Below are positions 32,056 through 60,143 of a stretch of DNA of 64,000 nt, piece after piece. The translations under genes and the position numbers were made by a program. Position 1 is the first letter of the stretch. Each line of letters opens with the position of its first letter. The notes under the pieces are model-generated. The model made no database searches. It saw only the letters and a list, made by a program, of their open reading frames with translations, and was not told where the DNA came from. This DNA is from an uncultured delta proteobacterium (GTDB lineage Bacteria > Desulfobacterota > Desulfobaccia > Desulfobaccales > 0-14-0-80-60-11): NCBI GenBank assembly GCA_963812015.1, contig CAWETI010000002.1:768001-832000 (forward strand), in the 5' to 3' direction.

Positions 32056-32150
32056 TAACTATGATGCAAAGGAGAGCTCTGCCCGTCCTATCAGTTGGTG
32101 GTATCCTGGGATTCCAGACCAGTCTAACCACATCAAGATAGGAGGCTGCG

Positions 32151-33209
32151 ATGAGACGACCCAAGGGGCAGGTGAAAGGCGGAGAAGATTTATTTGTCGG
32201 GATCGACCTACATAAGAACAGGTGGCACATAACCGTTCGGACTTTTGACGTAGAGGTGTTCAGCGCCAGCATTCCAGGGACCTGGGAGTCTTTGCCCCGA
32301 GTTTTAGCTCGCTATCCCGGCCATCCCCTGCAGGCGGTCTATGAAGCCGGATATTTTGGATTTCGGCTTCATGACCGCCTGGTGGATCATGGCATCCCCT
32401 GCCTGGTTACTCCCCCCAGTCTGCTTCCCCAAGAATACGGCAACCGGGTCAAAACCGATCGGCGGGACAGCAGTAAGCTGGCGCATCTGTTGGCCAAAGG
32501 GATGCTGAAGCGGGTGTGGGTGCCCAGTGAAGAGGAACTTTATCACCGCCAGGTCATCCGTCGCCGCCGGCAGTTAGTCAGGGATCGGGTGCGGACCCAG
32601 AGTCGCATCAAGGCAGAGCTGAGGTTTTACGGAATTCGCCTAGAAGAACCACGAGGCAGATGGACCCAACTATACTGCGAGACTCTGCGGAGTATCAGGT
32701 TTGGGAACCGCTGGATGCAGGAGAGCTTCAACCGCCTGCTGGAGCAGTATAAATTTTTAAGTGCGCAGATCGATAAACAGACCCAACTGCTGCGGGAATT
32801 ATCCGAGACTGCTCTGTACCAGGAGCGAGTGGAGATTTTACAGAGCATCCCCGGTATCGGGATAATCTCTGCGATGGAACTGCTGCTGGAACTGCAGGAC
32901 GTGTCCCGTTTTCGACGGGCGGAACAACTGGCGGCTTACGTGGGTTTAACCCCGTCCCAATACTCCAGTGCGGATAAGGTGCGCATGGGCCGTATCACCG
33001 GCATCGGCAAGAATACCCTCCGGGCCATATTGGTGGAAGCCTCATGGAAACTGATCACCAAGGATCAGGTGATGCGCCAAAAGTACGAAAGGATCAAGAT
33101 CCGTTCGGGAGGGAAGCGTGCCATTGTCGCCATTGCCCGCACCCTGCTGCTGCGCATGAGGCGCATGTCGCTTGATGGTCAGGCATACGCCTTTCAACTG
33201 GCAGCTTAA
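32151..33209 (+). CDS. IS110 transposase/recombinase
   Basis: VGIDLHK, YEAG, KTDRRDS (DEDD domain); SIPGIG, AYVGLTP...SS. Confidence 0.95.
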   Translation: MRRPKGQVKGGEDLFVGIDLHKNRWHITVRTFDVEVFSASIPGTWESLPRVLARYPGHPLQAVYEAGYFGFRLHDRLVDHGIPCLVTPPSLLPQEYGNRVKTDRRDSSKLAHLLAKGMLKRVWVPSEEELYHRQVIRRRRQLVRDRVRTQSRIKAELRFYGIRLEEPRGRWTQLYCETLRSIRFGNRWMQESFNRLLEQYKFLSAQIDKQTQLLRELSETALYQERVEILQSIPGIGIISAMELLLELQDVSRFRRAEQLAAYVGLTPSQYSSADKVRMGRITGIGKNTLRAILVEASWKLITKDQVMRQKYERIKIRSGGKRAIVAIARTLLLRMRRMSLDGQAYAFQLAA

Positions 33210-43759: not shown

Positions 43760-44084
43760 AGCAGGGAGTGATCAGGTTAACTATTGATAATTATTAACTT
43801 ATAATCTTAAAAGGGGCATTCCTGGTCTGTAGTGAACCACCCAAGCGACCTTAGATTTAGCAAATAAGTTCAATTGGCATGTCTTTAATGTACGATTATG
43901 TATGGTGATCTATGGCCTTAATTACAAATAAGTCACAAAACTATTCACCGCTTCTCCTTGATCAATGCCGTTAACTGGTCAGGACTGTCCCCCCTTGAAC
44001 CTAGTGCTATCCGGTAGACAACGCTTGGATTTAAAATAAAAAGCCCTGGGTATTGGCAGAGTTGATCAGAAAAATATTTAGTTA

Positions 44085-44303
44085 CTGCTATGACTGGGAA
44101 CTTATCAAGCCTCCAAAAACTTTCCATATCCAGAGGATATCCATCCTTCTTGACCTGGAAAAACTCCATATGTTCCCGCCGGTAATCTGGGGTTCCCTTA
44201 TCACCGACGGCTGAAATCTTCCTCCCCACAAGTGCCCGCACAAGATAAGGAGTTCATATCCGCAATTTTTCATGCCTCGTCGATAAGTGCCGAGTTTGGC
44301 AAG
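44085..44303 (+). repeat. Cassette-site copy 7: long two-core form (219 bp)
   Basis: Cores ATAT-CCAGAGG-ATAT (44126) and ATAA-GGAGTTC-ATAT (44245); TCTTCCTCCCCACAA; GATAAGTG..TTTGGCAAG. Confidence 0.88.
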
Positions 44304-44467
44304 ATATCTGCAATTTTTGCTTCCCATTCCGGGGGGGAAATTTTATGGTAACGCACGCCCTGGGAATAATCTTTTTAATCCTATAAGGATAAGGGCAAGA
44401 GGGGGGCACGGCTCGGTGCCCAGCGGAGCAGAAGACATTTAGCTGCACCTATCCAGTGGATCAGTCA

Positions 44468-45981
44468 ATGCGGGTTCTCTTAATTAACAGCAATCTGAAG
44501 GATGATATATTAGCAGCCCCCCTATCGGCCTGTGCTATGTGGCCAGCGCAGCTGCGGAGGCCGGTCATGAAGTGCTGGTCTTAGATCTCTGCTTTAAGCG
44601 GCGGATCAGACAGGAACTGAAAAGAGCCATCATCGGCTTCTCGCCGCAGATAATCGGCGTTTCATTGAGGAATCTTGACAACGCCAACATGCTCCGTCCA
44701 GTTGTTTACCTCCCATCGGCGCTTGAGATTGTTCAGGTGATTCGAGAATTAACCGCCGCTCCCTTAGTGCTGGGAGGCTCGGGAGCCAGTCTTGATCCCC
44801 AAGGGGTCTTGGAATTTCTGCACGGGGATTACATTATCGTTTCAGATGGGGAGAAGAGTTTTGTGGAACTTCTTAAAGCCCTGAGCCGGGATGAATCTCC
44901 TGCCGATATACCGGGAGTGGGAATGTGGTATCAGGGTAAGTTCCATGTAACTCCGCCCCAATTAACCTGCTTCCCCTTGGGAAATCCACGCCTCGGGAGA
45001 TGGGTTGACCTCACTCCCTATGAAAAGATGGGGAGTAGTTATACAGTTCAGACCAAGAGGGGCTGCAGGATGCGGTGCATCTATTGCACCTATAATCAAG
45101 TGCTGGAAGGAAACCGTCTCCGGTTACGTTCTCCGGTGGAGGTGGTGGATGAGATAGAGGAGGCGTTTTATAAATTTAAGCCGGAAACCTTTGAATTCGT
45201 GGACTCAGTCTTTAATGACCCTTTGGGCCATTGCCAGGAAATTTTAGAAGAAATCGTCCGGCGCCCCTGGAAAGCCCGTTTTACCACCATGGGGGTAAGC
45301 CCCAAGCATCTGGATACCCAACTGCTTCACCTCATGCAGCGGGCTGGGTTCAGTTCTTTTATGATCACACCCGAATCGGCCTCCGAGGCCATGCTCACCA
45401 ATTATCAGAAGGGCTTCGGTATAGAGGATTTGCATAGGGCTGCCGAGGCCATTAACAAGTTTTCTTTTCCCGTGTTCTGGTATTTTCTCGTCGGCGGCCC
45501 GGGCGAGACCACTCGCACCCTTCAGGAAACCCTGGAATTCATTGGGCGCCATTTGATCCGGAAGGAAAGTCCTCCTTATAACCTGGCCCATATCTTTTTA
45601 GGGGTGAGAATCTATCCAGGCACCAAGCTCTGGCGTATAGCCCTGGAGGAGGGCTTTATCCACGATCGAAGCGACCCACTCAGGCCTCTCTGGTATCTGT
45701 CCCGGGAACTTGACCTGGATGTGACGATGCGTCAATTGTATGAGGCCGCCTGCCGCTGGCCCGAGATTGCCTTGGGGGATGTGGAAAAGTTTTTCCCGCT
45801 CACAAAGATATTGGGGGTCAGCGGGAAAGTCTTCTCCTTACCCAAGCCCTACTGGCAACATTTACCCTCGGTCAATCGCATTCTCATCAAGTTAGGTCTA
45901 CTCTCCCTGTTCCAGCCCACTGGCATTCCAGCCCGGCTGCGTGAGTCCTTGGCACTCCAAAGGCTGCCCTTTAAGCAATAG
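44468..45981 (+). CDS. Cobalamin-binding radical SAM protein (one base missing in a C6 run at 44517-44522)
   Basis: MRVLLINSN..AP then PIGLCYVAS after the shift; QTKRGCRMRCIYC; FVDSVFN; GGPGET. Confidence 0.88.
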
Positions 45982-46071
45982 GCCGGCCTCGCCGCCTGCA
46001 GCAGATAAGGAGTAGACATTCATCATAGGAGTGTCAGATATCAGGAAAGGCCGAATACAGAACAACCGAGT

Positions 46072-47049
46072 CTATAGCCACCCCATCTTCTTATACCAGG
46101 CAGCGGTGGTGGCCAAGCCGGTCAACAGGTCGATAGCCGGTTGGAAGCCGATTTCGGCCTTGGCCCTTTCATTACTGCACAGCCAGTTGGACTGCCGAAT
46201 ATCGCGCAGCTTGTCCAGACTCAGCAAGGTGGGTATGCGGGTGAACTGGGAGGCCAGGGAGCCCCCGAGAGCCACCAAGCGCATCACACCCCAGGGGACG
46301 CGAAGGGTCCCGAACCGCTGCTCCAGCGCCCGGCCCAGATATTCGCCTACCGTCTGCCAGTCGTAGTGCCCTTCGCCGCAGATATAATACACCCGCCCAG
46401 GGGCCTGCTCCGACCGCATGGCCAGCAAGATCCCCGTCACCAGATCGTGCACATGCACCAGGCTTACCTTTTGGGCGCTCAGGCCCGGAATGACGTGGAG
46501 GCCCCGGCGCACACTCTTGAAAAGCATAAAGGTGCCCCGGTCCCGAGGGCCATAGACTGCGGGCGGGCGGATGACGATGGCGGGGCGCGTCCGGCCGAAT
46601 TCCAGGACGGCCCTCTCGGCCGCCAGCTTGGATTCACCGTAAGCCGATACGGGATGCGGTTCTAGGTCTTCGGTCAGTGGGTAGCCGGGACTGGGACCGG
46701 CCGCGGCCAGGCTGGAAACGAACAGCACTTTCTGATCCTCAGGCCCATACTCCTGACAGGCCTGGAGCAGATTGCAGGTTGCCTCCAGATTCCCGCGGAA
46801 GTATCCAGTTCGCCGGGCCGCCCGGGTAGCCCCGGCCACGTGGAACACCACGTCCACGTCCACCACGGCTGGGGCCAAAGAGGCGGGGGCATGGAAATCG
46901 CCGGAGACCAGAGTTAGGTGTTGGCTGCTGAGCCAGGTGAGGTTGCTGTGGGGACGAACCAGGCACTTGACCTGCGCCCCTTCGGCCAGCAACCGGTCCA
47001 CCAGGTTGCTGCCGATGAAGCCGCTGGCCCCTGTTACCAAAGCACGCAT
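46072..47049 (-). CDS. NAD-dependent epimerase/dehydratase (extended SDR; ceramide reductase CerR-like)
   Basis: TGASGFIG, VSSLAA, YGESK, RPPAVYGPRD. Confidence 0.88.
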   Translation of the reverse strand: MRALVTGASGFIGSNLVDRLLAEGAQVKCLVRPHSNLTWLSSQHLTLVSGDFHAPASLAPAVVDVDVVFHVAGATRAARRTGYFRGNLEATCNLLQACQEYGPEDQKVLFVSSLAAAGPSPGYPLTEDLEPHPVSAYGESKLAAERAVLEFGRTRPAIVIRPPAVYGPRDRGTFMLFKSVRRGLHVIPGLSAQKVSLVHVHDLVTGILLAMRSEQAPGRVYYICGEGHYDWQTVGEYLGRALEQRFGTLRVPWGVMRLVALGGSLASQFTRIPTLLSLDKLRDIRQSNWLCSNERAKAEIGFQPAIDLLTGLATTAAWYKKMGWL

Positions 47050-47081
47050 GAGAAAATCCTATCGAAGGGGAGGCTGGCCGC

Positions 47082-47816
47082 TCACCGGCCCCAGGCCACT
47101 GAAAGCCAGGCTTCTTTTAGGCGGACCGAGACCGCCGGACAGGTTTCTCGGCCCCCCGGAAAAGTCCCGTCCGGGTCTGGATTTCCCAGGCATCCGTGCC
47201 AGAGATAGCCGTGCTCTCCTGGGCCGGCAAATTGGACCTCCACCTGCCGGGGGCTCAGAAAGTGAAAACCACAGCCCCAAGCCTTCACCACCGCCTCTTT
47301 AACCGACCACAATAGGGCTGCGGCCTCTTCCCGGTTCCCCGCGGTCAGGGTAACCGCTGCCTGCCACTCCGATTCCATGAAGACCCGCTGGTGCGGATAG
47401 GACCCGGCGAATTCCCCGGGGGCGGCTGCATCCAATCCGAGACCCCTCTCAGACCTGCCTACAGCCGCCCACAGCCGTCCGGCGCTCCAACTAAAGGAAA
47501 GGGCCGGGCCGACGACAGCGGCGTCCAGCCAAATCTGGGGCTTGCCCAGGGGGTCCCGCCTCAGGGTCAAGTCCGGCAGCTTCCGCTCCAGCAAGTGCTG
47601 CGCCAGAAAGCGGGCCAGGGACTCCTTTGCCGCCTGCCGGTGACAGCGGCCTTCCCATCCCGGCGCGCAGGAGCGCAAAGCCGCGGGCGTTGAAGCCACC
47701 AGGGCCGGTTCGCCCCGGGGAGAAAAAAATACCGGCGCCACCAGCGTGGGTCTTTGGTTTGGACCGGCACTGAGGCCTCCGGCCTGGGCCGGGATTCTGT
47801 TCTGAAGCGGTCTCAT
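47082..47816 (-). CDS. 4'-phosphopantetheinyl transferase
   Basis: RDPLGKP, LSFS, GLGLD, LWSVKEAVVKA; ATGA overlap with the PKS stop. Confidence 0.85.
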   Translation of the reverse strand: MRPLQNRIPAQAGGLSAGPNQRPTLVAPVFFSPRGEPALVASTPAALRSCAPGWEGRCHRQAAKESLARFLAQHLLERKLPDLTLRRDPLGKPQIWLDAAVVGPALSFSWSAGRLWAAVGRSERGLGLDAAAPGEFAGSYPHQRVFMESEWQAAVTLTAGNREEAAALLWSVKEAVVKAWGCGFHFLSPRQVEVQFAGPGEHGYLWHGCLGNPDPDGTFPGGRETCPAVSVRLKEAWLSVAWGR

Positions 47817-50800
47817 TCCGAAAAGGAGTGCAGCCTGAGCCCCCGCACCTTCATGAGGGGCTGGCCGTCGGCGTCCAGGGCCTGGGCATCCCAGGTAAAT
47901 CCATTGGAGTCCTCGTCCTGCAAGCGGGCCTCCAGGATCACCCGCTCTTGATTCCGGCAACGGCGGGTGAAGGACATGGCCTCGATACGCACCGGGATGA
48001 AGGTGCGCTCATCCTCCTCATTCCGCATGACAATGTAAAAATTGGTCATCTGCATGAGGGCCTCCATCACGTAAGGGGAATACTGGAGACTGGGAGCCTG
48101 CAGGTGGGAAAAATCCATCTCGGTCCGGTACGCAGCCGCGCCCCGCACTAGGCCCGGCCCGGAGCCGTCCAAATGCTCTATTACCCGATATCTCCCCTGC
48201 ATAGCGGTCCGTTGGTCATACCAACCGATAATTTTCTCCAACTCCTCCGTCCTGGTGTCCAGGTCCTCGAGCTTCAGTGGAAATCCCGGCAGATTGGGCC
48301 AGGCAGGCGGCGCCGCCCCGCTTAAAACCACTTGGGCCCGATAGTTGATGTCCTTCTTGTCCAGCACTTTCCCGGTGGGGGAGAGGAGGGGGGACTCCAT
48401 GGTGAGTTGGCACACCACCTCACCTCCAGGCTCCCGGAGGCGGTGGCAAGTGATGATGGAATTGATCGCTACCTCCGGCGGCACTTCGATGGCCTCCAGA
48501 AACTCCACCTCCCTGACCTCCCTGACCTCCAGGTAAGGGTAAAGCAGGCGGGCGGCCTCCATGAAGGTTTCCAGGGCCATGATGGCGGACACCAAGGGGT
48601 GTTTCAGAAACTTGAAAGGCTTATGGTCGGCGATCCACAGGTCCCGCTCCCGGGAGAACACCCGGGAAGCCTGCAGCACGCCCGCCTGGAGATCCAGATA
48701 GGAGATGGCGTCAATTAGGGGGAATTGTTCCGGCGCAAAGACCATGGCGCCGTCCTGGAGGCCCGGTGGGGCTGGTTTCGGGTCGGCGGTATCCAGCCGG
48801 AGATGCTTGATCTCTGGGAGCCGGGACATAAACATGACCCACACGTCCTGGGGACCGGTCAAAAAAAGCTCCCGGCAAAAGAGTTCCTTTAGTTCCTGGG
48901 GTTCCAGATATCCGACCCCCATCTTCTCCAGCAGGCGACGGAGGTCCGGGTTATCGGCCATGCCGCCGCCGCTGATAGGCGGCAGGCTCAGGGCCTTGCA
49001 CAGGATAGCCGGGTGTTGCGCCTTAATCTGACTCAACAGGGCCGACATCATCCGGTTGGCGGCGGTGTAATTGGTCTGGCCGCGGTTCCCCTGGATGGCC
49101 GCAACCGAAGACAGGGCCACCACGAACCGCAACCCGGCTTCGGAAGCGGCGTTGAACAGGTTCCAGGCGCCTTTGAATTTGACATCCAGGACTGCGGCCA
49201 CCTCCTCGGGATTAAGGTGGGCCAGCAGCTTGTCCCGCAACACCCCGGCCCCATGGACCAGGCCATCGATTCGGCCGTAACGCCGGATAATTTCGTTGAC
49301 TGTCTCCTGCACCTGGTCCGGATACGTCACATCACAGGAGAGATAAGCCACCTCCATGCCGGCGGCCCGCAACTCTTCCAGGCTCTGCATAACCTGCCGG
49401 GCCTGAAACAGGCGGGCCAACTCCTGCTGCAGAGCCTCCTGGGAAATATCTGGTCTTTGCTGCATGATCTGCCAGCGCAAGGCCTTTTCCGAGGGTTCCT
49501 CAGCCAGCAGCAGTTTGCTGATTTCTTCGTCCAGGTCGATGGCGGTCCGTCCCAGTAAGACTACCTGGGGATTGAAAGTCGCCAAACATTCCACCAGATG
49601 GGTGGTGATGCCGTAGCCGCCCCCGGAGAACACCAATACGTCACCACGGTTCAATGCCAGCGTGGGTTCGCTCATTCCTTCCACCAGGACCACCCGCCCT
49701 GCGGTGGTCATGACCTGCCCCTGGCGGTACCAGGTATCGATGACCGGCTGCTGCGGGTCCAGCGCCTGGCGCAAGGCCGGCAGCAGTTTGGTCTCCCGGT
49801 CCAGCCGCACCGTGCGGAAGAGCAAGTCGGGGTACTCCAGGGCGGCGCTCAGGAAGAGTCCCAAAAGGCCCTGGGATAACAAGTGTTCCTCTCCGGCCTC
49901 GTCCGGGGAACGATGCAAGGCCAGGGCAAATTTTTTCCGAGACGCGGCCCCCAGGGATTGCAGCAGCGGGAAGCAACCTGCGAGCAAACAGGGCAGGTCA
50001 TCCATTCCCTGGAGCCTGCAGGTGAAGCTATCATCCAGGAGTATTACCAATCCGGCCAGGGAGGGGTCTGCGCTCAGCTTGAGGGCCGCCTGGCGAGCCC
50101 CTTCCGGCTGGCGCAGGTCAAACCCCGTGCCTTCGGGCCCGGCCTCCAGAAAAGCCAGGGACTGGACGGCGCACCCCCACTCCCGGCGGAATAGTTCGCT
50201 GACCTCTTCCAGCCACGCCGAACTGCCGCCGGGGTAAAGGATAGCCACTGTATCCGACGACGTCAGTTCAAGCGGCTGGGGGCTGAAATCGGGCAAAGGC
50301 ACCGGCCCAAAGACCACCCGCTTGAGGGGCTTCACCTGGCCCAAAGGCGCGTCCACGGCTGCTCCGGAGGCTGCCGGGGCCGCCTGGGCCCCGGCCGGCG
50401 GCGTTTCCCTGCCTTCACCTCGGGCCACCACCTCGGAGATGCGGGAAGCCAGCTCCCGGACGGTGCGGACATCCAGAAAGTCCTCCAGTCGAATTTCGAT
50501 GCCAAAACGGCTCTCCGCGGCGTCTATGATCACGGGAAAACGGCTGGAGCGAATGGCCAGGTCGGATCGCAGGTCCATATCCGGCTCAATCTCATCCCTC
50601 TCGTACCCGGTGGCCTCCATGATGAGGCCGATCACCTCTTCGAGATAGTCGGCGCCCGCTTCCGGTAAGGCCCGGGGTGGCGAGGGAGAAGGTTCAACGG
50701 CTGGCAATGGGGCTGCCGCCAGCGTCGTCGCCGGGTTATTGGATGGAACCACCGGGGGGGTCCAAGCAGCCTGCCGTGATTGCAAGAGCTGCTCCAGGTT

Positions 50801-53800
50801 TTCTTCAGAGAAATTGGGGGCATATTCCCGGCGGATAGCGGCCAATAGGGACGGTTTTAAGAATCGTCCAAAGGACTCCAGGACAAAGGCGCTGACCTCC
50901 CGCTGAATGATTCTTTCCAACGGGTCAACAGGGCCAAAAGAGGCCATTGCCGCCGGTTTCACTACCGTTGTCGCCGGTGCGGCGGGCCACTGTGCCGTCC
51001 GGACCCCAGGGAGAGAAATGAACTTGAGCGGGCCCGTGACTTTGAGATGACCCCGGGCAAACAACTGGCCCATAGCCGACTGCAAGGTCGTCTTCTCCGC
51101 ATCCGGGAGGCAGGTGGCAATACAATCGGGTGATTCCAAGATTTGGGTGACGAGGTTGCTCATGGTGTCTCCCGGCCCCACTTCCATGAAAACCCTGATG
51201 CCGTAATCTTGCCGAAGGGTGCGGACGTTGCTCATCCATTGCACCGGGGACTCCAGGTGCGCCATGATGATCTTCTTGATTTCCACCGGATCCGCCGGAA
51301 AAGACGTCTTAGTCGTGTTGGAAATCACCGGGATGCGGGGGGCGTGGAAGGGAATGTGGCTAAGGAACTCTTCCATTTCATCATGGATGACCCGCATGAG
51401 GGGAGAATGAAAGGCCATGCTAACCTTGAGCTGGGTGGCCCGGTACCCCTCGGCCTTGATCTCCTCCCGCAAGGCCTGGATCGTGGCGGTATCGCCGCCT
51501 ACCACCACTTGGCTGGGGGAGTTGTAATTAGTGATGTAGGCCTGTTCCAGCCCCTTGATCTTCGCTTGCACCAATTCCAGAGGGGCGTCGGTGGCGATCA
51601 TGATGCCGGGGTCCAGGTTCAGCTCGCAAGCTTTGTCCATGCAGCTCGCCCGCATGTTCACCAGGCGGAAGCCGTCCTCAAAGGAAAAGACTCCTGACGT
51701 GGCCAAGGCCGTGAGCTCTCCCAGGCTGTGGCCCGCCATGGCCCTGGGCTCGATCCCCAGGGACCGGAGATACTGCATAATGGCAAATTCGAGGCAAAAG
51801 GTGGCGGGCTGTTGCCAGCGGGTTTTCTGCAAGTCCTCCTCCCGGTCCTGGAACAGCAGGTCCAGCAGGTCGAACTCGGCTAGGGCCGCCGCCCGGTCCA
51901 GCCAGTGGCGGATCACCGGGAAGGTTTCGTAAAGCTCGTAGCCCATACCGGCGTATTGGGCTCCCTGCCCGGGGAAGACCAGGGCGAGGGGTTGGGGCGC
52001 GACGCCCTCCTCCCCCAGAAAGAAGCCCTTGCGCCCCAGGACCCGCAGCATCTTCTCCGAAAGGGGGACTTCCGGCGCCAGGGGCTGCAATTCCTGAACC
52101 CGGCTGCGAGCCTCCGCCTCAGAGGTGGCCACCACCGCCAGGCGGTATGCCTGCCCGGCCACCTCGGTCCGGCCACAGAACACCCCTTCCGGCAGGTCCT
52201 GGTTGCCGCCGGCGGTCGCCGCCGGGGGCGCCTCGCCGGGGAGCGATACCAGCACGGCGTCATTCCCTTTCCTGGATTCCTCCAGGTGCATGACATAGTT
52301 GGAGCCGCCAAATCCGAAGGAGTTAACCTGGAGTCGCCGGGGACGGTCATTGGCGGATTTCCACTCCGAAGGTTCGGTTGGCACCACGAGGCCCGAACCC
52401 TCGATGGCCATTTCAGGATCAGGGGTCCGGTAGTTGAGGGTGGCTGGGAAGACTCCCGTTTGCATGGCCTTGACGCCTCGGATGAGGCTGTTGAGGCCGG
52501 AGGCCCCTAGGGTGTGGCCGATCTGGGACTTAAAAGAGGTGCACATGGTGCGGCCGTTGCCCCGATAAAAGGTCTGCAGGGCCTTCACCTCCTCCACGTC
52601 CCCTTGAAAGGTCGAGGTGGCGTGGCACTCCACCAGATCCACGGCCTCCGGCCCATAAGGCGCGTCCCGGAAGGAGGCCCGGATGGCGATCTCCTGGGTC
52701 TCCCGGGAAGACTCCACCAGCCCCAAATGATTGTTACTGGCGCCGGTGCCGGTGAGATAGGCGTGCACCCGGGCCCCCCGGCGACTGGCGACCCGCTCCG
52801 ACTCGATGACAATCATGGCGCCGCCTTCGCCGAGCACCATGCCGTCCCGCTTGAGGTCAAAGGGCCGGCTGCTTTCCGCCGGTGGATAATCCTCGCCGGA
52901 CATTCCCGCCAGGGCCCCCAGGGCGGAAAATTCCTGGAAGTGGATGGGGGTTAGAGCCTCTTCGCCGCCTCCCACGATGGCCGCATCGATGATGCCGTTG
53001 CGGATCAACTGCATGGCGCTGTAGAGCGCCACCAGGGAAGTGGCGCAGGCCGCTGACACTGCGAAGCTGGGGCCCATGAAGCCGTATTTGTTGGAGATAT
53101 AGCCGCCGGCGGTACAATTGAGCCGCCCCAGCAGGGTGGTGTCGTCAATGGCCAGGCGCCCGGAGATAACCTCCCGGGTGAGAGCCTCCTGGCCTTCCGG
53201 GGTCAGAGGCACCACTCGCTGGATGGAGTTCAGGATTCCCCCCCAGGCTCCCCGCACCAGGATGTCCATCAAGGTCCCCGCGGCCTCGCCGGAGTTTTGG
53301 GAGATCAACACGGCAATACGATCTCTGGGGATGTCGGCGGCGAGGATTCCCGAATCCTGGATGGCCTGGCTCGCCAGCCACAGGGTGACCTTGGTGGCGT
53401 GAGTCATGGTGCGGAAGTCCTGGGGTGGAATGTTTAGATCTTTGCGGGAGATGTCCAGATTCTGAAAGGCTCCCACTTTGCAATAGATTTTTTCCGGCAT
53501 CCGGGGACGCGGGTGGTAGAAGAGCCGGTAGTCCCACCGTTCCGGGGGCACATAAGTGATGCCGGATTTCATGGCCAGGCTGGCGGCCCAGACCTCAGCC
53601 GGAGAGTTCCCCAAGGCGTTGACCACACTCATGCCGGTGATGGCGATGCGTTCTCGCCCGGGCTCCCGGAAGGCGGTGCCCCGGGGCGGCCGCCCCGGCA
53701 TCGCCGCGGCAGCCCCCCGGACCGGGCCGATCTCGGGCTGCGTCAGGTGGAGCGGCCCTTCGGCCAGATCCTGATGGAGCTTTGCGACCGACTTAACCCC

Positions 53801-55798
53801 CGTGATCGCCCCAGCGCAGGCGCCGCTCATAAACTGGCCCTTATCCAGGCAGGTGGCCGGGGACAGCGGCGGCCCCTGGGGCCCTGCGGTGCCCCTGGCC
53901 GCCACAAGCAGGCTTCCGGCCGTCAGGGTCTCCATCTCCCGGCGAAAGGAGGCCTCCTCCTGGCGACCGCCCTGGAAATCCCGCTCCAGGGCCGCCAGGC
54001 GATCCATCGCCGGAGTTTTCAGCGACCGTACCCGCAACCCGGTGGCTTCGCCGCTCACCACGGTGCTCCCGGGGGTGGCTTCCAGGATCAGCCTTTGATA
54101 GAGGGCGGTCAAGGCCCCGGTGCTAACTATCTCCTCGGTCGCCAAGTAGGCAGTCCCCACTTGAATGGCGTCGGCTCCCAGCATGACAGCCATAAAGGCC
54201 GTCTCCCGCTGATAGATGCCCCCCGCCAGAACAATCCGGCGCCCTTCAAGGAGGTGCGGTTCGCGGTGCTTCAATTCCAGGGCGATTTGGGCCAGGGTGA
54301 GAGTAGTATGTTGCCCCACGTGGCCGCCGGCTTCATTGCCCTCCAGGATGAGATAGCGTACCCCGACACTGCAAGCCAGACGCAAGAGGTCTTCATTGGG
54401 GGCGAGATACATCACCTCGAGGCCCCGATGCCGCAAGTCCTGGGCAAAAGATGGTTCCCCTGCGGCGATTACTGTAAATCGGGGGCGTTTACGGGTGATC
54501 CATTCCAACTGGGCGTCCCGGTGGGGATTTTCTGCCAGGGCGATGATATTCACAGCGTAGGGCCGGTCCTCCATGACCTCCGACAACCGTTGCAGCTTCC
54601 CGGTCAGGGCATCCTGATCCATGAGGCCCAAGGCCACCGTGGGCAGCCCCCCGGCGTCCGCCACCGCCCGCGCGAATTCCGGGACGTCGGTGATCCAGGA
54701 CATAGCCCCCTGAATAATGGGGTAACGGGTGCCCATTTCCCGGGCCACGGGGGTCTGGGCCAGGAGGTCCGCCTGTTCCCGGGCCCGGGCGCACTGTGCG
54801 GCCACGTCGGCCAGAAAGCCATCCAGGGCCTCCTGGGTGCCGGAGCCATAACGCGCCGCAAAGGAGGCGGCAAAGGCCGCCTCTATTCCCAGGGGGATGA
54901 GCTCTTCCCGGCGAAAACTGCTCTCCTGGGGCGCCTGGGCCGCCCGGACGGCCTCCCGGGCAAAGGTCCGGCTTTCCTCCTCGGTCACCGTCTCCGTTCC
55001 GGTGGGCACCGCCTCAAGTAGCCGCTTGACCGCCTGGGAATTTCCCTTGTTGAAGACTCGAAAAGGTGCGTTAAGATTAAGCCCCACCAACTGGGTATGA
55101 TCGGGACGCAATTTCGCCAGACCCTGCCGGGAGGATTCTCCCAGCCCGGCTAGGTCGGTCAGCCAATGGAGGCTCTCCAGCACGATTCCCTTGGCGCCGG
55201 TAGTGAGAAAAGCCGCGGCCGCTTCCGGGGTGGCCACGCCTCCCCAAATTACCAGCCCCAGCGCCGACTCCCGATGACGGAGACGGTCGCACAGAGCGGC
55301 GTACAAGGTAAAGGTGGATTCACTGCTCACCAAGCCACCCGCCTCACTGCCCTTGAGCACCACCTGGGGCAGGTCGGCATGCTGATCCAGCACTTCCAGG
55401 ATAAGAGACACATCGCTGAGGATAGGAAAGATATCCACGCCAGGGCTTAAAGCGGTCAAGCGTTTCAAAGCGGGGTGCGCAGAATCGTCCAGCAACAGGG
55501 GATGGAACTCCACCCAAAGGCCCTTTATGGCCAGAGATTCCAGCAACTCCGGAAGCGCCTGATCCCAAATCGCCTCAGGAGCCACCTTGAAGTGGACGGC
55601 CTCTCCCTGGGCGCCGATCCGGTTAAGGACCGGGGCCGCGGCCGTAAGAGGCAGGTGTGACAGATCAACCAGGCCGATAGTACCGGAATTCACCGCCATC
55701 TTGGCCACTGCCGGAGAGAACTCCTCCGGTCGCCAGACCGTGGCAATTATCGGACGAGTGTTCGCAACCACCCTGATTCTTCCGCAAGACTCACCCAT
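47813..55798 (-). CDS. Iterative type I PKS/FAS (Pfa-like): ER0-ER-KS-AT-ACP-KR-DH
   Basis: FabK/NMO-type PIIQGAM..EAGGH; KS SAACATS/HATST/KSQIGH; AT GHSLG/AFHS; ACP DLAIRSS; KR GGGYGIT/YTAAN; DH DHKPF..HP. Confidence 0.92.
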   Translation of the reverse strand: MGESCGRIRVVANTRPIIATVWRPEEFSPAVAKMAVNSGTIGLVDLSHLPLTAAAPVLNRIGAQGEAVHFKVAPEAIWDQALPELLESLAIKGLWVEFHPLLLDDSAHPALKRLTALSPGVDIFPILSDVSLILEVLDQHADLPQVVLKGSEAGGLVSSESTFTLYAALCDRLRHRESALGLVIWGGVATPEAAAAFLTTGAKGIVLESLHWLTDLAGLGESSRQGLAKLRPDHTQLVGLNLNAPFRVFNKGNSQAVKRLLEAVPTGTETVTEEESRTFAREAVRAAQAPQESSFRREELIPLGIEAAFAASFAARYGSGTQEALDGFLADVAAQCARAREQADLLAQTPVAREMGTRYPIIQGAMSWITDVPEFARAVADAGGLPTVALGLMDQDALTGKLQRLSEVMEDRPYAVNIIALAENPHRDAQLEWITRKRPRFTVIAAGEPSFAQDLRHRGLEVMYLAPNEDLLRLACSVGVRYLILEGNEAGGHVGQHTTLTLAQIALELKHREPHLLEGRRIVLAGGIYQRETAFMAVMLGADAIQVGTAYLATEEIVSTGALTALYQRLILEATPGSTVVSGEATGLRVRSLKTPAMDRLAALERDFQGGRQEEASFRREMETLTAGSLLVAARGTAGPQGPPLSPATCLDKGQFMSGACAGAITGVKSVAKLHQDLAEGPLHLTQPEIGPVRGAAAAMPGRPPRGTAFREPGRERIAITGMSVVNALGNSPAEVWAASLAMKSGITYVPPERWDYRLFYHPRPRMPEKIYCKVGAFQNLDISRKDLNIPPQDFRTMTHATKVTLWLASQAIQDSGILAADIPRDRIAVLISQNSGEAAGTLMDILVRGAWGGILNSIQRVVPLTPEGQEALTREVISGRLAIDDTTLLGRLNCTAGGYISNKYGFMGPSFAVSAACATSLVALYSAMQLIRNGIIDAAIVGGGEEALTPIHFQEFSALGALAGMSGEDYPPAESSRPFDLKRDGMVLGEGGAMIVIESERVASRRGARVHAYLTGTGASNNHLGLVESSRETQEIAIRASFRDAPYGPEAVDLVECHATSTFQGDVEEVKALQTFYRGNGRTMCTSFKSQIGHTLGASGLNSLIRGVKAMQTGVFPATLNYRTPDPEMAIEGSGLVVPTEPSEWKSANDRPRRLQVNSFGFGGSNYVMHLEESRKGNDAVLVSLPGEAPPAATAGGNQDLPEGVFCGRTEVAGQAYRLAVVATSEAEARSRVQELQPLAPEVPLSEKMLRVLGRKGFFLGEEGVAPQPLALVFPGQGAQYAGMGYELYETFPVIRHWLDRAAALAEFDLLDLLFQDREEDLQKTRWQQPATFCLEFAIMQYLRSLGIEPRAMAGHSLGELTALATSGVFSFEDGFRLVNMRASCMDKACELNLDPGIMIATDAPLELVQAKIKGLEQAYITNYNSPSQVVVGGDTATIQALREEIKAEGYRATQLKVSMAFHSPLMRVIHDEMEEFLSHIPFHAPRIPVISNTTKTSFPADPVEIKKIIMAHLESPVQWMSNVRTLRQDYGIRVFMEVGPGDTMSNLVTQILESPDCIATCLPDAEKTTLQSAMGQLFARGHLKVTGPLKFISLPGVRTAQWPAAPATTVVKPAAMASFGPVDPLERIIQREVSAFVLESFGRFLKPSLLAAIRREYAPNFSEENLEQLLQSRQAAWTPPVVPSNNPATTLAAAPLPAVEPSPSPPRALPEAGADYLEEVIGLIMEATGYERDEIEPDMDLRSDLAIRSSRFPVIIDAAESRFGIEIRLEDFLDVRTVRELASRISEVVARGEGRETPPAGAQAAPAASGAAVDAPLGQVKPLKRVVFGPVPLPDFSPQPLELTSSDTVAILYPGGSSAWLEEVSELFRREWGCAVQSLAFLEAGPEGTGFDLRQPEGARQAALKLSADPSLAGLVILLDDSFTCRLQGMDDLPCLLAGCFPLLQSLGAASRKKFALALHRSPDEAGEEHLLSQGLLGLFLSAALEYPDLLFRTVRLDRETKLLPALRQALDPQQPVIDTWYRQGQVMTTAGRVVLVEGMSEPTLALNRGDVLVFSGGGYGITTHLVECLATFNPQVVLLGRTAIDLDEEISKLLLAEEPSEKALRWQIMQQRPDISQEALQQELARLFQARQVMQSLEELRAAGMEVAYLSCDVTYPDQVQETVNEIIRRYGRIDGLVHGAGVLRDKLLAHLNPEEVAAVLDVKFKGAWNLFNAASEAGLRFVVALSSVAAIQGNRGQTNYTAANRMMSALLSQIKAQHPAILCKALSLPPISGGGMADNPDLRRLLEKMGVGYLEPQELKELFCRELFLTGPQDVWVMFMSRLPEIKHLRLDTADPKPAPPGLQDGAMVFAPEQFPLIDAISYLDLQAGVLQASRVFSRERDLWIADHKPFKFLKHPLVSAIMALETFMEAARLLYPYLEVREVREVEFLEAIEVPPEVAINSIITCHRLREPGGEVVCQLTMESPLLSPTGKVLDKKDINYRAQVVLSGAAPPAWPNLPGFPLKLEDLDTRTEELEKIIGWYDQRTAMQGRYRVIEHLDGSGPGLVRGAAAYRTEMDFSHLQAPSLQYSPYVMEALMQMTNFYIVMRNEEDERTFIPVRIEAMSFTRRCRNQERVILEARLQDEDSNGFTWDAQALDADGQPLMKVRGLRLHSFSE

Positions 55799-55954
55799 TG
55801 ATCATCTGCTCCTCATAATGGAGAGAGAAATAGACCGTTTCGGCCTTAGGTCAAGACATCGCCAGATCGTGCGCAGGTTGGCCCCCTGCGTTGACGTATC
55901 CTCTCCTTGGTCTCGTCGTCCAGAACCTGCAATGAGAGATGCAATCACCCAATA

Positions 55955-57094
55955 CTATGGCGTCAATTCTTTCCGGTATATCCTAAATCTCTTATTCACT
56001 TTGGCGCCCCCATCCATATACCACTGGTTGATCAGGTCATTGTCTTCAAGATTCCAGCCTAACTCAATATACTGGTATCCCTTATATTTAGGATTTTCAA
56101 TAATCGTCCGGAAAAGGTAGTCGAAGGCTAATAGGGGTAGCCCCATTTGGCGGTACTTTTTTCTAATCCCAAAAATCAACCCCCGATGCCCATTGATTTC
56201 CCGCCGGTAGAGGAGAAACTTGAGCCATCCCAGCATTCCTATTTTACCATTGAGCCGTTTTAACAAGGGATTGATATCCGGAATGACGACTCCCACCCCG
56301 ATCGGCTCCTGGCCATCTAGCATAAAAAAACCCAAGTCAGGATCCATGATGCGCGCCAAGCTGTGGCCGATCTCTTCCCACTCGGCATCGGTCATGGGGA
56401 CAAACCCCCAGTTGTCAAACCAGGCTTCGTGATAGATCTCCTTCACATACTTCAATTCGTTGTGGAAATCTTCTCGAACTCGGATAGGCCGTATTTGGAT
56501 GTTGGCCTTTTTGGAGATGCGCCGGGCAAGACGCCCCACCCAGGGTGGCGGTTGCCAGTGGCGATCCACCCAAAACGACAGCAGGTCCTTTTCTTTGCTG
56601 TAACCGCAGGATTCCACCAATCCTGGATAGTAGGGGGGATTATACGTCATCATTACCACCGGGCGTTGTTGGTAGCCCTCCACCAGCAAGCCTGCCTCAT
56701 AGTTGCTGGAAGGATTTAAGGGGCCCCGCACAAAAGTCATTCCCTGACCCCGGAGCCATTCTTCCACCGCGCCCATGAGGGCTGCCGCGGCTTCTAAGTC
56801 TTTAGAGCACTCGAAAAATCCCCATATTCCCATGCGCTCATCGTGGAACCGGTTGTAATTATGGTCCACGATGCCAGCGATGCGGCCCACCGTCTCGGTA
56901 CCCCGCTGGGCCAGAAACAGCCTTTGCTCGGCAAATCGCCAGAAGGGATGCGTTTTAAGGTCAATTAGCTTAGCCACCTCCTTTTTCAAAGGGGGGACCC
57001 AGTTGGGGTCATGGGCGTAAATCTTCCATGGCAGTTCTAAAAAGGCCTTCATCTCCGAAGGTCGCGTGACGGTAATCAATTTCACCGGTGCCAT
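55955..57094 (-). CDS. YghO-type GNAT protein (bacterial ceramide synthase bCerS-like)
   Basis: LPWKIYAHDPNWVPPL, HPF, VGRIAG, GFFEC, RGPLNPS, YNPPYY, NWGFVPMT, ELGWNLEDN. Confidence 0.8.
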   Translation of the reverse strand: MAPVKLITVTRPSEMKAFLELPWKIYAHDPNWVPPLKKEVAKLIDLKTHPFWRFAEQRLFLAQRGTETVGRIAGIVDHNYNRFHDERMGIWGFFECSKDLEAAAALMGAVEEWLRGQGMTFVRGPLNPSSNYEAGLLVEGYQQRPVVMMTYNPPYYPGLVESCGYSKEKDLLSFWVDRHWQPPPWVGRLARRISKKANIQIRPIRVREDFHNELKYVKEIYHEAWFDNWGFVPMTDAEWEEIGHSLARIMDPDLGFFMLDGQEPIGVGVVIPDINPLLKRLNGKIGMLGWLKFLLYRREINGHRGLIFGIRKKYRQMGLPLLAFDYLFRTIIENPKYKGYQYIELGWNLEDNDLINQWYMDGGAKVNKRFRIYRKELTP

Positions 57095-57164
57095 GAAAAT
57101 TCCTTTATTATGGATTTACCGCACAGAAGCGATTCATGAGCACGCGGAAATGGTAGCCCGCGGC

Positions 57165-57365
57165 GGCCATGGACATACCATCTCCGGGCATGATAGGAAA
57201 CCATGGCGCCCATCTTGATCAGGCGCTTAATCAGCCAATCCATGGATCGTTTAACTACTTCGCCCCAGACATAGAACTGCCGGATCATGTTGAGGAGGTG
57301 GTAAGCCAGAAGCCCCATCTTCAACCGGGCTTGGTTGGCCTCGAAGCTCTGGCAACTGGTCTTAT
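57165..57365 (-). pseudogene. IS1380 transposase C-terminal fragment
   Basis: TSCQSFEANQARLKMGLLAYHLLNMIRQF...RLIKMGAMVSYHARRWYVH. Confidence 0.75.
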
Positions 57366-57924
57366 AGTTATGCTTATTTCAGGCAATTCTTGCGGCATAA
57401 TCAAGGATATGAATACTCTCCTCACCTACCTACCAACCATCAAAAATAATCAGGGATTAGGCCTGACACTTGGCACAAAAACTTTAAATGTCGCCAGGGT
57501 CTTAGATAACGCTATGATATCCATGTCAACCTGGATTATGCAGCAAAAATTGAGAGAAAATAGTATAATATATTGATATAATTAGATATATTAGTAAATT
57601 AGGGGTGTTCCAAGATGCTCGTCAATGCTGAAAGCCAGAATGGATTGATTCAGCCGGATTTAAACCAAAATATCATAACAGATTTTCAAGGGCAAAGATC
57701 ACTTCAGGCGTTAATTTTCTTCTGGTGCGAGAGATTGATGACCTTTCAGGATCATTAACCAAAGGAAAGATTGCCTGGAAGACTTTGGGCCACATATTCG
57801 AAGCATTCCTTAGTCCAGATGGTGCATGAATGGAGGCCCGCCTGGTTTCCATCTTTGTCAAGGAGGCGGTGGCTCTTGCACTTGGACCTCGCCAAAGAGA
57901 GAGAAAGGTAAACAAGAAATAAGA

Positions 57925-58068
57925 TTACCGACTTCTCTTTTGATCTCTCGAAATAATCTCAATTATAAACAAAATGCCAATCAATACACTTAATATTGAT
58001 CCCGCAAGAATCGCGATTGGCAATTCTTTCCAACCTATTTCCATAATATTTTCTTCGGTCGTGGTCAT
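57925..58068 (-). CDS. Small single-TM protein
   Basis: 47-aa ORF with hydrophobic helix and basic tail, starting 30 nt beyond an IS1380 right end. Confidence 0.45.
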   Translation of the reverse strand: MTTTEENIMEIGWKELPIAILAGSILSVLIGILFIIEIISRDQKRSR

Positions 58069-58097
58069 GGTTTGTTCCTTGTGGACAAGGCAATCCT

Positions 58098-58372
58098 CCG
58101 AGATTTTGCAGCAACCCGGGCCACCGAATTCCAAAAACGGTTTTGGCGACCTCTCTTTCCGGGTTTAACCCCGGAAAGCTTCTTCTTTTACAGCCAAATT
58201 ATCTCGTGGGAGGCATGATAGCACAAATTTCGCTGAAAGAGTAATTTCCCCAAAAATCTGAGCAGACCAAACCCTTAGAATCAAAATGCTTCACTGCTGT
58301 GGAGCTTAAGGAGTCCATGCCAGCACCGCCCGTAAATGGTTAGCCAGTGGAAAAGCTGAGGTCGCATGCACA
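58098..58372 (-). mobile_element. IS1380-family right-end remnant
   Basis: VHATSAFPLANHLRAVLAWTP*, AAATTTGTGCTATCATGCC block, end CTGCAAAATCTCGG. Confidence 0.72.
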
Positions 58373-58406
58373 TTAGACCTCCGGGCTGGATCAGAGGTGT
58401 CGATAG

Positions 58407-58463
58407 CTGCTATGATCCGAAACTTATCACAGAGCCAAAAACTTCCCCATATCCAGAAGATAT
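58407..58463 (+). repeat. Cassette-site copy 8: left arm plus core
   Basis: CTGCTATGATCCGAAACTTATCACAGAGCCAAAAACTTCCCC-ATAT-CCAGAAG-ATAT. Confidence 0.85.
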
Positions 58464-58914
58464 GTGCTCTTTGGTGGCCGGCCCCGCCGCTGTCTCTGTC
58501 TCTTTTTCGGCTTCCGTTCTCCCTACGCCCCTTGGGGGCTAAAGGTTTCACGGTTATCGGGCCCAGAGCGCAGGCGTACCCTCAGGGTCAACGGCCCTGG
58601 GGGATGGGTTCGTCTCCCTCGGTCAGTCGCGGCCATGTGGGAATCGGCGCCTCCTGCACCGATGGCCCGGCCACCCATCGACTCCGAATCCCCGACACAA
58701 GCCGGCAGGGAGTGTTCACGACCTGGCTAAAGGCCTGGTTGAAGCAATGAGAGCCCCCCCTGAGGCGATCATCCTATCCCTGGACCCGTCCCGCCGGCCA
58801 CTGGTGCACCGCAGGTCCGGCCTTGCCCCTACCTACGACGGCCCCTTTACCCCTCCTCATTCCTGTGAACTCTGCCCAGGGTACGGCAAACTTGGCCCAC
58901 CGTCTCCTCCTGTC

Positions 58915-60076
58915 CGGGGCCACCTCCGGCGATCTGAACACGGTCCTGGACGCCATCGATGGCTTACCGGCCAACCCCAATGTCCGGGACGCCTTCAAGC
59001 AGATCTCCCCGGATAAGGCCGGGGCCCTGTCCACCCTGGCCTTTGCCGGGGCAGCCTCCCAGATGCGCAACCAGGCCCAGCGGATCACCGATCTGAGCTT
59101 CGGTGGCCGGGAGGCCGGAGTCCTGGGTGGGCTCCCCGGGTCCTTTGACCTCAATTACTCACGGACGGGGGGGCTGATGTTGGCCTATAACTCCGCCAGC
59201 CTGGCCGGGCTGATCACGGAAAAGCCCAAGGCAGCCCCCGAGAGCCGCTGGGGTCTCTACCTTGACCCGTCCCTCATCTTGGGGTCTCAGCAATCCTCGG
59301 TGAACCAGACGGGATTTAACTTCACCATGGCGGGCTTCACTGCCGGGGCCGACTACCGGGTTCGGGACAACCTCCTGGTGGGCCTGGCTACGGGCTACAG
59401 CCACACCAATTCCAGTTTCTTCGGCTCCGGGGGCGGGGTCCAGACCAACACGTGGCCCCTGACGGCCTACGCAGCCTACCTGCCCCAGTCCTTTTACGCT
59501 TACGGCTCCCTGGGCTATGCCCTGAACCTCTTCAACCTGCAGCGGCAGATCGGCTTTGGGGGCCTCAACCGCACCGCCACCAGCTCCACTACGGGCAATC
59601 AGCTCAACGCTTACGGGGAGGCGGGGTACGACCTGAAGGCCAGTTCCCTGGTAATAACCCCCGTGGTTTCCCTGGCCTACTCCGGCCTCTGGGTGGACAG
59701 CCTGACGGAGAACGGCGCCGGGGCCCTGAACCTCAAGGTCTCTCCTCAAAACGCCACCTCTCTGCAAACGGGGGTAGGCGCTAAGGTGGCCGCGCCTTTG
59801 AAGAGGGGCCCGGTGACGGTGGTGTCTCAGGCCTACGCCACCTACCAGCACGAGTTCGCCAACGACAGCCGGGGCCTCAACGCCAGCCTCAGCCAGAGCG
59901 GTAGCACCTTCAATTTTCAGACGGACGCCGCCCCCAAGAACTATGCCTTGGTGGGGGCCAACGTGACCATCTTGACCGACAAAAACTTCCGGGTTGAACT
60001 CAACTACAATACCGAAGTGGGCCGATCCAACTACACCGCCCATTCCGCCTACGCCGGGGTGCGCTGGGAATTTTAA
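58915..60076 (+). pseudogene. 5'-truncated autotransporter (linker plus beta-barrel only), paralogue of 24524-28975
   Basis: TSGDLNTVLDAIDGLPAN..KQISPDKAGAL..VRWEF closely matches the earlier gene; no signal peptide or passenger. Confidence 0.8.
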
Positions 60077-60087
60077 TGTGCAGACAC

Positions 60088-60143
60088 CTGCCCTGATCCG
60101 AAACTTATCACTGAGCCAAAAACCTTCCATATCCAGAACACAG
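60088..60143 (+). repeat. Cassette-site copy 9: left arm plus partial core
   Basis: TGATCCGAAACTTATCACTGAGCCAAAAACCTTCC-ATAT-CCAGAAC; near-identical direct repeat of copy 8. Confidence 0.83.

Follow-up and report, generated by a model that had tools for sequence, protein, structure and literature searches.

We analysed a stretch of 64,000 nucleotides (hereafter the window) from an uncultured delta proteobacterium, which covers positions 768001-832000 of contig C2 in a genome of 3.96 Mb. The subject of this report is an operon on the minus strand, a run of four closely spaced open reading frames (ORFs) that extends from position 57094 down to 46072 and encodes an acyltransferase, which we refer to as YghO1, a polyketide synthase (PKS), a 4'-phosphopantetheinyl transferase (PPTase) and an extended short-chain dehydrogenase/reductase (SDR). 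The initial annotation of the window had described this run together with a convergent gene for a cobalamin radical SAM protein, and all five genes were found where it had placed them. The genes of the operon are as follows (aa, amino acids; bCerS, bacterial ceramide synthase; FAS, fatty acid synthase).

55955-57094, minus strand: YghO1 (P0001), first gene of the operon, a YghO/bCerS-family tandem-GNAT N-acyltransferase of 379 aa, by homology to Escherichia coli YghO and by structural model
47813-55798, minus strand: iterative type I PKS/FAS-like synthase of 2661 aa, by its Pfam domains
47082-47960, minus strand: PPTase of 292 aa (PF01648, ACPS, 46.7 bits)
46072-47049, minus strand: CerR-like extended SDR with the NAD-dependent epimerase/dehydratase fold, last gene of the operon, 325 aa (PF01370, 131.5 bits)

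The start codon of the PPTase gene is uncertain, as the listed TTG start results in an overlap of 148 nucleotides with the end of the PKS gene. A scan of positions 43800-58800 for promoters and terminators revealed none above shuffled expectation (4 against 5.8 expected; 18 against 17.1). The GC content of the YghO1 gene is lower than that of the PKS gene (0.514 against 0.629). A separate origin of the YghO1 gene was considered on these grounds and rejected because the same offset recurs in all 14 relatives checked (from the set L018-L096).

Features of the encoded enzymes

The PKS is composed, in this order, of an N-terminal segment (ER'), an enoyl reductase (ER), a ketosynthase (KS), an acyltransferase (AT), an acyl carrier protein (ACP), a ketoreductase (KR) and a dehydratase (DH). 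Its Pfam domains comprise an NMO/FabK-type ER (residues 355-605), a KS (716-1123), an AT (1274-1566), a single PP-binding domain corresponding to the ACP (1721-1787), a KR (2133-2261) and a PS-DH domain (2525-2660), and the same domain scan gave no thioesterase within the protein. The first 350 aa matched no family; inspected by eye, they look like a second, degenerate ER. The AT is probably of the malonyl type, judging from its motif, which was likewise read by eye. On the basis of its sequence, the protein is predicted to be a complete reducing iterative PKS with one ACP and without a release domain. It scored below the cut-offs of every NCBIfam PKS model, including PfaA (TIGR02813; 439 of 1010 bits) and PKS_plus_SDR (527 of 1740 bits).

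With regard to YghO1, profile scans gave no Pfam or NCBIfam match, and a comparison of its sequence with the chains of the PDB returned nothing at E <= 1. It aligns over its full length (379 positions; 31% identity, E 7e-61) with YghO of E. coli K-12. For the AlphaFold model, computed from 44 family members (pLDDT 92.5, pTM 0.91), the best PDB matches are the tandem GNAT N-acyltransferases 2wpw, 5kf1 and 7q3a (Foldseek E ~1e-12, TM 0.54-0.61), and PF00583 is present in 19-47% of the members among the Atlas neighbours of the protein. According to the model, YghO1 is predicted to fold as a tandem GNAT, which, together with the homology to YghO, agrees with its initial description as a YghO-like GNAT. 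More than 5000 homologues exist (5247 of 8000 scored candidates at E <= 0.001); where they carry a name, it is 'acyl-CoA N-acyltransferase'.

The legend of Figure 9 in PMC9386255 groups yghO (ECD_02850) with Caulobacter CC_1154 as 'aca', the N-acyltransferase gene of dihydroceramide synthesis. In the relevant passages of the same source, ECD_02852 is grouped with CC_1164 as the 'epi' gene of this synthesis, and 'aca' and 'epi' are the two genes that complete it; a passage of PMC11324152 gives CC_1154 as CerS and CC_1164 as CerR. The assignment of YghO1 to the bCerS family was made via E. coli YghO, the Caulobacter enzyme being linked through this literature.

The Rossmann motif of the SDR spans residues 5-13, and a signal peptide is not visible. 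The protein shares 32% identity (E 2e-40) with the oxidoreductase of the E. coli spt cluster described below and 31-40% with the SDRs of 14 gene triads that contain a serine palmitoyltransferase (Spt)-like gene, while the next best SDR within its own genome reaches only 74 bits against it and all others 74 bits or less. Two orthologues, 62% and 54% identical, occupy the same position in related loci (L025 and L026, respectively).

Conservation of the gene neighbourhood

Species-representative genomes were scanned with YghO1, and 206 stretches matched, 194 of which encode relatives. The best 80 of these 194, with 54-82% identity and 10-kb flanks, constitute the locus set used here; neighbours were typed by tblastn with the proteins of this genome, and loci from related genomes are not independent observations. 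Of these loci, 71 extend at least 1.5 kb downstream of YghO1, and in 69 of them the next gene is a PKS in the same orientation; L040 and L059, the latter with 1.7 kb downstream only, deviate from this. An SDR of the window type was found in 39 of the 80 loci, in 37 cases directly upstream of YghO1 and in two (L025 and L026) after the PPTase as in the window; two further loci, L018 and L027, end inside the SDR gene. A PPTase match follows the PKS in 38 of the 80, many of the loci ending before that point. Co-occurrence of the GNAT and the SDR with the PKS in other genomes, which the initial annotation had named as a point to check, is thereby observed.

According to the record titles of the locus set, the hosts of this module include, within Thermodesulfobacteriota, Desulfobacca, Desulfobulbaceae, Syntrophobacteraceae, Smithella, Desulfosarcina, Desulfotignum and Desulfobacula. 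Further hosts are Geobacteraceae and metagenome-assembled genomes (MAGs) of Nitrospirota and of Sedimentisphaerales/Phycisphaerae.

We also drew an even sample of 401 genomes of the phylum, of which 127 possess a YghO-like gene, and retrieved 60 of the 148 matching places, each with flanks of about 9.4 kb. The neighbours vary with the identity to YghO1. At 45-59% identity, 14 loci were fetched (of 20 full-length matches) and 8 adjoin a PKS. At 38-44%, 14 of 22 loci are triads of an SDR, an Spt-like oxoamine synthase (AOS) and a YghO protein, which is the canonical ceramide gene set; five have the SDR only and three have neither. At 28-37%, three of 24 loci are triads, which cluster with E. coli YghO, five lie in Spt-MacB-ABC-OEP-HlyD-YghO-589-aa clusters and 16 have none of these genes. 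All 12 sampled genomes of the window's family have some YghO-like gene, and four of them carry the PKS-linked type (51-56% identity to YghO1); adjacency to the PKS was confirmed in three (G397, G373 and G325), the fourth carrier (G244) being outside the fetched set.

The phylogeny, obtained with fast methods (FastTree and the quick mode of IQ-TREE) and rooted on the E. coli clade, follows this division. In the IQ-TREE analysis of 51 rows, the PKS-linked YghO proteins form one clade (18 rows, SH-aLRT 96), which together with a sister group having the SDR only (21 rows in total, SH-aLRT 100) is nested within the grade of the triad proteins, and a FastTree of 89 rows gave the same picture. The PKS-linked proteins are a distinct subclade, 38-44% identical to the triad proteins and not interleaved with them. 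With regard to the reductases, the commoner SDRs located upstream of PKS modules nest within the triad SDRs with a support of 97 (FastTree, 43 rows).

Links to serine palmitoyltransferase-like genes

No AOS-family gene is present in the window, as the initial annotation had noted; the sole PF00155 gene (8585-9700) is HisC. The initial annotation had also proposed a search of the genome for spt, and this yielded an Spt-like gene on contig C3. The genome has four AOS-family genes, all on this contig, which encode BioF, two proteins of 422 aa and one Spt-like protein of 432 aa, whose best NCBIfam model is SerpalmtaseCFB (433 bits). The gene for the 432-aa protein heads the following cluster.

C3:1276896-1286061: lipid cluster (locus L017), headed by the Spt-like 432-aa AOS gene

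It is followed by genes for a MacB-type permease, an ABC ATPase, an outer-membrane factor, a HlyD adaptor, a paralogue of YghO1 designated YghO2 (33% identity to YghO1, E 1e-56), a protein of 589 aa and a DUF4070 ORF. Clusters of this type are kept in the window's family (L148-L150, L152 and L153). The 589-aa protein has no Pfam match; a tentative lead towards PMT_2-like membrane glycosyltransferases comes from its Atlas neighbours (15-32% of members). An epimerase gene beside the cluster was examined as its possible CerR and rejected, with E 7e-4 to the E. coli reductase.

In several related genomes the module and the Spt-like genes are physically joined, which supports the initial view of the two bracketing genes as ceramide-type. 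In the closest relatives, L018 and L027, the Spt-efflux-YghO2 cluster lies divergent from YghO1-PKS-PPTase at a distance of about 1.4 kb; the two halves found here on separate contigs are therefore neighbours there. L075, L083 and L093 have the order SDR-Spt-YghO-YghO1-PKS-PPTase on one strand, and in L081 Spt and SDR adjoin YghO1. An AOS lies within 10 kb in six of the 80 loci. Spt in the same gene cluster is common, not universal, in known ceramide producers.

Twenty-five genomes carrying YghO1 were searched with the Spt-like protein at E 1e-30, and 24 gave an AOS-family match. The best match has 62-100% identity in ten genomes (our own included), 43-46% in seven, and 35-37% in a further seven, where it lies inside an open frame of 1120-1218 aa; three of these frames were confirmed by Pfam as FAAL-ACP-AOS fusions. 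Of 12 extended regions fetched, eight have an ORF of 1117-1212 aa near the module, and all four of the large ORFs scanned are fusions of an acyl-AMP ligase (AMP-binding), an ACP and an AOS, as follows by Pfam.

L160:3387-6740: FAAL-ACP-AOS fusion
L161:5022-8660: FAAL-ACP-AOS fusion
L163:5114-8548: FAAL-ACP-AOS fusion
L165:4175-7552: FAAL-ACP-AOS fusion

These fusions occur beside the PKS module in Desulfobulbales-type and Sedimentisphaerales genomes. Rhodobacteria use AasR, AcpR and Spt as separate proteins, and the fusion amounts to a joining of these three. In L163 the PPTase is followed by an ABC ATPase, an ABC-2 permease and then a convergent radical SAM/SPASM gene and the fusion gene, which ends 3.3 kb after the PPTase. 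The other four extended regions have stand-alone AOS genes, with a PAP2_3 gene beside three of them, and are also equipped with DUF4833, extra KS genes, B12 radical SAM genes, a sulfatase-family protein and SDRs. Over the whole set, PAP2_3 genes adjoin the AOS in L160, L165, L166, L168 and L169; this Pfam family presumably includes inositol-phosphorylceramide synthase.

The natural isolate E. coli FDN-24 (L159) carries spt, an ACP, a 304-aa oxidoreductase and an acyl-AMP ligase beside yghO, whereas in E. coli K-12 (L098) an IS5 element abuts yghO where FDN-24 has its spt genes. FDN-24 additionally has second copies of lptF and lptG at this place. The arrangement suggests the loss of the remainder of a ceramide-type cluster in K-12.

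Proposed pathway and alternatives

In our assessment, the chances are about even that the operon forms a self-contained unit within a ceramide-type (sphingolipid-like) pathway of bacteria. The PPTase would activate the single ACP of the PKS, which would then iteratively produce a straight, largely reduced acyl chain from malonyl units. Because no thioesterase is present, the chain would stay on the ACP until YghO1 releases it by transfer to the amino group of a long-chain base. The latter would be made by an Spt-like oxoamine synthase, encoded in this genome on another contig within the Spt-MacB/ABC-OEP-HlyD-YghO2 cluster, and the CerR-like SDR would reduce the 3-keto group of the product. We infer the identity of the PKS product with the N-acyl chain, the sphingoid nature of the acceptor and the substrate of the SDR.

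The PKS chain is probably the N-acyl chain, a reading favoured by the strict adjacency of the PKS and YghO1 and by the many nearby AOS genes that come with a ligase and an ACP: an AOS in a FAAL-ACP-AOS fusion can activate its acyl group itself, and the PKS chain is therefore left for N-acylation. Extended to all hosts, the proposal becomes more tentative and falls somewhat short of an even chance. It would then describe a widespread PKS-dependent branch of sphingolipid synthesis in anaerobic Thermodesulfobacteriota and in MAGs of Nitrospirota and Planctomycetota, in which a dedicated paralogue of ceramide synthase takes its chain directly from the ACP of an iterative PKS and amide-links it to a sphingoid base.

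Several observations weigh against this proposal. bCerS reportedly accepts acyl-CoA and not acyl-ACP. No AOS is found in the window or, in 74 of the 80 loci, within 10 kb of YghO1, and G109, a genome that is 92% complete, gave no AOS match at E 1e-30. The Spt-like protein of this genome scores below every NCBIfam Spt cut-off (433 against 640). Six of the 14 sampled loci with 45-59% identity belong to the same clade and have no adjoining PKS; their neighbours are regulators, B12 radical SAM/DUF4070 genes, glycosyltransferases or an acyl-CoA ligase. Loci of the L075 type already possess a second YghO-like gene in the Spt triad, so that two N-acyltransferases would compete for one amine unless their acceptors differ. 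Finally, in the FastTree of 43 SDRs, which left out the L025 and L026 orthologues, the SDR of the window branches from an unresolved polytomy at the base, without clean separation of the outgroups. The bCerS and CerR assignments of the initial annotation hold as far as the homology of YghO1 to YghO and the similarity of the SDR to the reductases beside spt genes are concerned.

In an arrangement resembling the Sga system, the PKS chain would instead feed the Spt-like AOS, so that the PKS would provide the long-chain base, possibly a very long one, whereas YghO1 would add an ordinary acyl group from acyl-CoA or acyl-ACP and the SDR would reduce the ketone. There is a precedent: in Pseudomonas fluorescens MYb115, C24-C28 sphinganines are produced by the iterative PKS SgaA together with the AOS SgaB, as reported in a passage of PMC12134224. 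An AOS-catalysed condensation would also free the chain from the PKS without a thioesterase, and AOS genes lie near the module in many genomes. We nevertheless consider this arrangement unlikely: the neighbour of the PKS is YghO1 (69 of 71 loci) and not an AOS (6 of 80), the nearby AOS is fused in eight genomes to an acyl-AMP ligase and ACP of its own, and hence has its own acyl supply, and SDR-Spt-YghO triads occur without any PKS in 14 of the 22 loci at 38-44% identity.

A second alternative is an amino-lipid without a sphingoid base, in which YghO1 would place the PKS chain on an amino acid or a small amine, the SDR would modify the chain or the head group, and the links to Spt would reflect shared islands of envelope-lipid genes. 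The four genes alone would form a complete unit for making and releasing such a product, the tandem GNATs of the PDB acylate many kinds of amines, and both the absence of an AOS within 10 kb in most loci (74 of 80) and the unrelated neighbours of six of the 14 sampled clade members are consistent with it. However, YghO1 and the SDR are both nearest to proteins of the Spt triads, and the module recurs with an AOS in unrelated arrangements (triad, divergent cluster and FAAL-ACP-AOS) as well as with PAP2_3. An AOS match was moreover found in 24 of the 25 carriers, at 43-100% identity to the Spt-like protein in 17, and we regard this alternative as improbable.

If the ceramide-type reading is correct, it would provide a function for an orphan PKS cluster that is very common among sulfate reducers and syntrophs, and a relative of ceramide synthase would be the enzyme that frees the chain from a PKS. 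Sphingolipids of bacteria are today considered much more widespread than was once assumed, and the chains and enzymes of anaerobes are largely unknown. The products would be ceramides with unusual N-acyl chains, which could be among the unassigned sphingolipids of anoxic waters and sediments, and the genes would serve as markers for unusual ceramides used as environmental biomarkers.

The convergent radical SAM gene

The gene converging on the SDR gene encodes a B12-binding radical SAM protein, and its two possible extents are the following.

44539-45981, plus strand: B12-binding radical SAM gene, convergent on the SDR gene, 480 aa (Radical_SAM and B12-binding domains)
44468-45981, plus strand: the same gene including an earlier frame, a neighbour of the operon, with a frameshift near codon 18

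The start at 44468 given by the initial annotation is an ATG that lies in a different frame from the main ORF, which begins with GTG at 44539. Between the two frames there is a run of six C (44517-44522), and they join only with one more C. The gene is frameshifted in this assembly, because an 87%-identical orthologue is uninterrupted at this point and a contig of an independent metagenome run (X3) has one extra C in the run; this may reflect a real defect or a homopolymer error, or translation may begin at the later GTG. Six C are present in the sequencing run to which the source sample probably belongs.

Among the NCBIfam models, the protein scores best with TIGR04072, 'lipid biosynthesis B12-binding/radical SAM protein', reaching 277.3 bits where the cut-off is 360. 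In the 80 loci, no match to it with more than 26% identity lies within 10 kb of YghO1. For its orthologues in G416 (87%) and G417 (57-59%), the 16-20 kb retrieved contain neither a PKS nor a YghO gene, and G415, the closest relative by YghO1, gave no match above 32%. As it is not conserved beside the module and its orthologues lie away from any PKS, we treat the gene as a neighbour outside the module, possibly an accessory one. Other B12 radical SAM genes do occur beside YghO-like genes: one is located directly upstream of YghO1 in six of the 80 loci (L019-L024). Such genes, many with a C-terminal DUF4070 domain, also adjoin YghO-like genes of several clades (including L111, L112, L168 and L169). 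The recurrence is a hint that such lipid clusters may share a radical SAM tailoring step. The cluster-borne genes were considered as orthologues of the gene in the window and rejected, the identity being 26-29%.

The initial annotation had treated this enzyme as a pathway partner that possibly methylates or cyclises the PKS chain. The model TIGR04072, the recurrence of other B12 subfamilies beside YghO-like genes and a close strain (contig of run X3), which keeps the adjacency of the gene and the module, speak for such a role. Nevertheless, the score is below the cut-off, the gene is frameshifted, and neither the 80 loci nor the related genomes conserve the association. A part in the pathway is therefore very improbable, and the gene lends no support to a methylated or cyclised chain.

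Repeats and other features of the window

A family of nine repeats of about 250 nucleotides, with two conserved modules in an alignment of all copies, is dispersed over the window.

15209-15277, 18241-18300, 20540-20772, 23962-24068, 29452-29583 and 31816-32059: repeat copies
44063-44313, plus strand: repeat copy flanking the block on the left and located upstream of the radical SAM gene (families D5, D8, D9, D10 and D12)
58397-58447, plus strand: partial repeat copy (5' module) on the right flank of the block (family D9)
60078-60128: repeat copy

Inspected by eye, the end of the 3' module (TGGCAAG-N4-CTGCA) resembles a sigma-54 promoter facing the downstream plus-strand gene. The copy at 31.8 kb is located directly upstream of an IS110-family transposase gene (32151-33209), and metagenome contigs break at the copy at 44.1 kb. 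The repeats matched no Rfam family, the sole Rfam match in the window at the gathering threshold being a tRNA (4647-4718). The block had been described as lying between cassette sites 7 and 8; real repeats do flank it, but the integron cassette framing found no support, with no integrase family among the 39 window ORFs scanned.

The window also contains two autotransporter genes (24524-28975 and 58823-60076), whose 3' parts, encoding the beta-domain, are 71-75% identical in DNA (families D3, D4 and D14). The larger one exhibits a periodic Gly/Ser-rich repeat array of 69-75 nucleotides at 26.3-27.2 kb (D1, D2, D6 and D7).

Comparison with known systems

The operon points to a form of ceramide synthesis in bacteria that employs a PKS module together with a specialised paralogue of ceramide synthase, an arrangement that is apparently undescribed. 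A literature search, with most subscription journals outside it, found no prior description of a PKS together with bCerS/CerR-type genes or of such a cluster in sulfate reducers, and the SgaAB work was the sole link between a bacterial PKS and sphingolipids that it returned.

The PKS resembles the Pfa-type synthases surveyed by Shulse and Allen (2011, PMC3098273), as far as the passages on their organization go, in the order KS-AT-ACP-KR-DH, in the presence of a FabK-type ER (there as PfaA and PfaD) and in the adjoining PPTase. PfaA is also among its best NCBIfam models. It differs in its single ACP in place of tandem ACP domains, in the fusion of the ER at the N-terminus and in a score below the PfaA cut-off, and the window ORFs scanned include no PfaB or PfaC gene (KS-CLF, FabA-type DH). 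Coupling to a YghO-like acyltransferase, as found here, is not mentioned in the same passages of PMC3098273. A core FAS role was proposed there, in a passage on the Type S cluster of Desulfobacterium autotrophicum, and the full reducing set (ER, KR and DH) with a malonyl-type AT would suit a type I synthase of bulk membrane fatty acids, yet this role can hardly be entertained here because the genome has a FabZ/FabA-family dehydratase (125.9 bits) and the PKS-linked YghO is patchy in the family (4 of 12 sampled genomes), the PKS being moreover tied to an N-acyltransferase and a reductase and not to glycerolipid acyltransferases.

In comparison with the ceramide pathway of Spt, bCerS and CerR, known from Caulobacter crescentus and from spt-yghO of E. 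coli, YghO1 and the SDR are homologous, and the module is contiguous with the triad in some genomes. Here, however, the PKS and PPTase stand where Spt adjoins the acyltransferase, the operon has no AOS, AcpR or AasR gene, and the acyl donor would be a PKS-bound chain rather than acyl-CoA. In addition, the CerR of Caulobacter is reported in a passage of PMC11087976 to be periplasmic, whereas the SDR of the window lacks a visible signal peptide.

The SgaAB(C) system of P. fluorescens MYb115 consists, in the passages of PMC12134224 that describe it, of an iterative type I PKS, an AOS and a KDSR-like SDR, and produces very-long-chain sphinganines. The two systems are alike in employing an iterative PKS for a sphingolipid-type product and in having a pyridoxal phosphate-dependent AOS and a reductase in the pathway. 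In SgaAB(C), the AOS is the partner of the PKS, and those passages describe no N-acyltransferase of the bCerS type, whereas here the N-acyltransferase is the partner; an adjoining AOS of the SgaAB type is absent from the window, and an AOS within 10 kb is confined to six of the 80 loci. The reductase is KDSR-like in the one and CerR-like in the other, and a FabK/PfaD-type ER at the N-terminus of the PKS sets the present synthase apart. The hosts differ as well, being aerobic Pseudomonas and Burkholderia in the case of SgaAB(C) and mostly Thermodesulfobacteriota in the case of the module described here.

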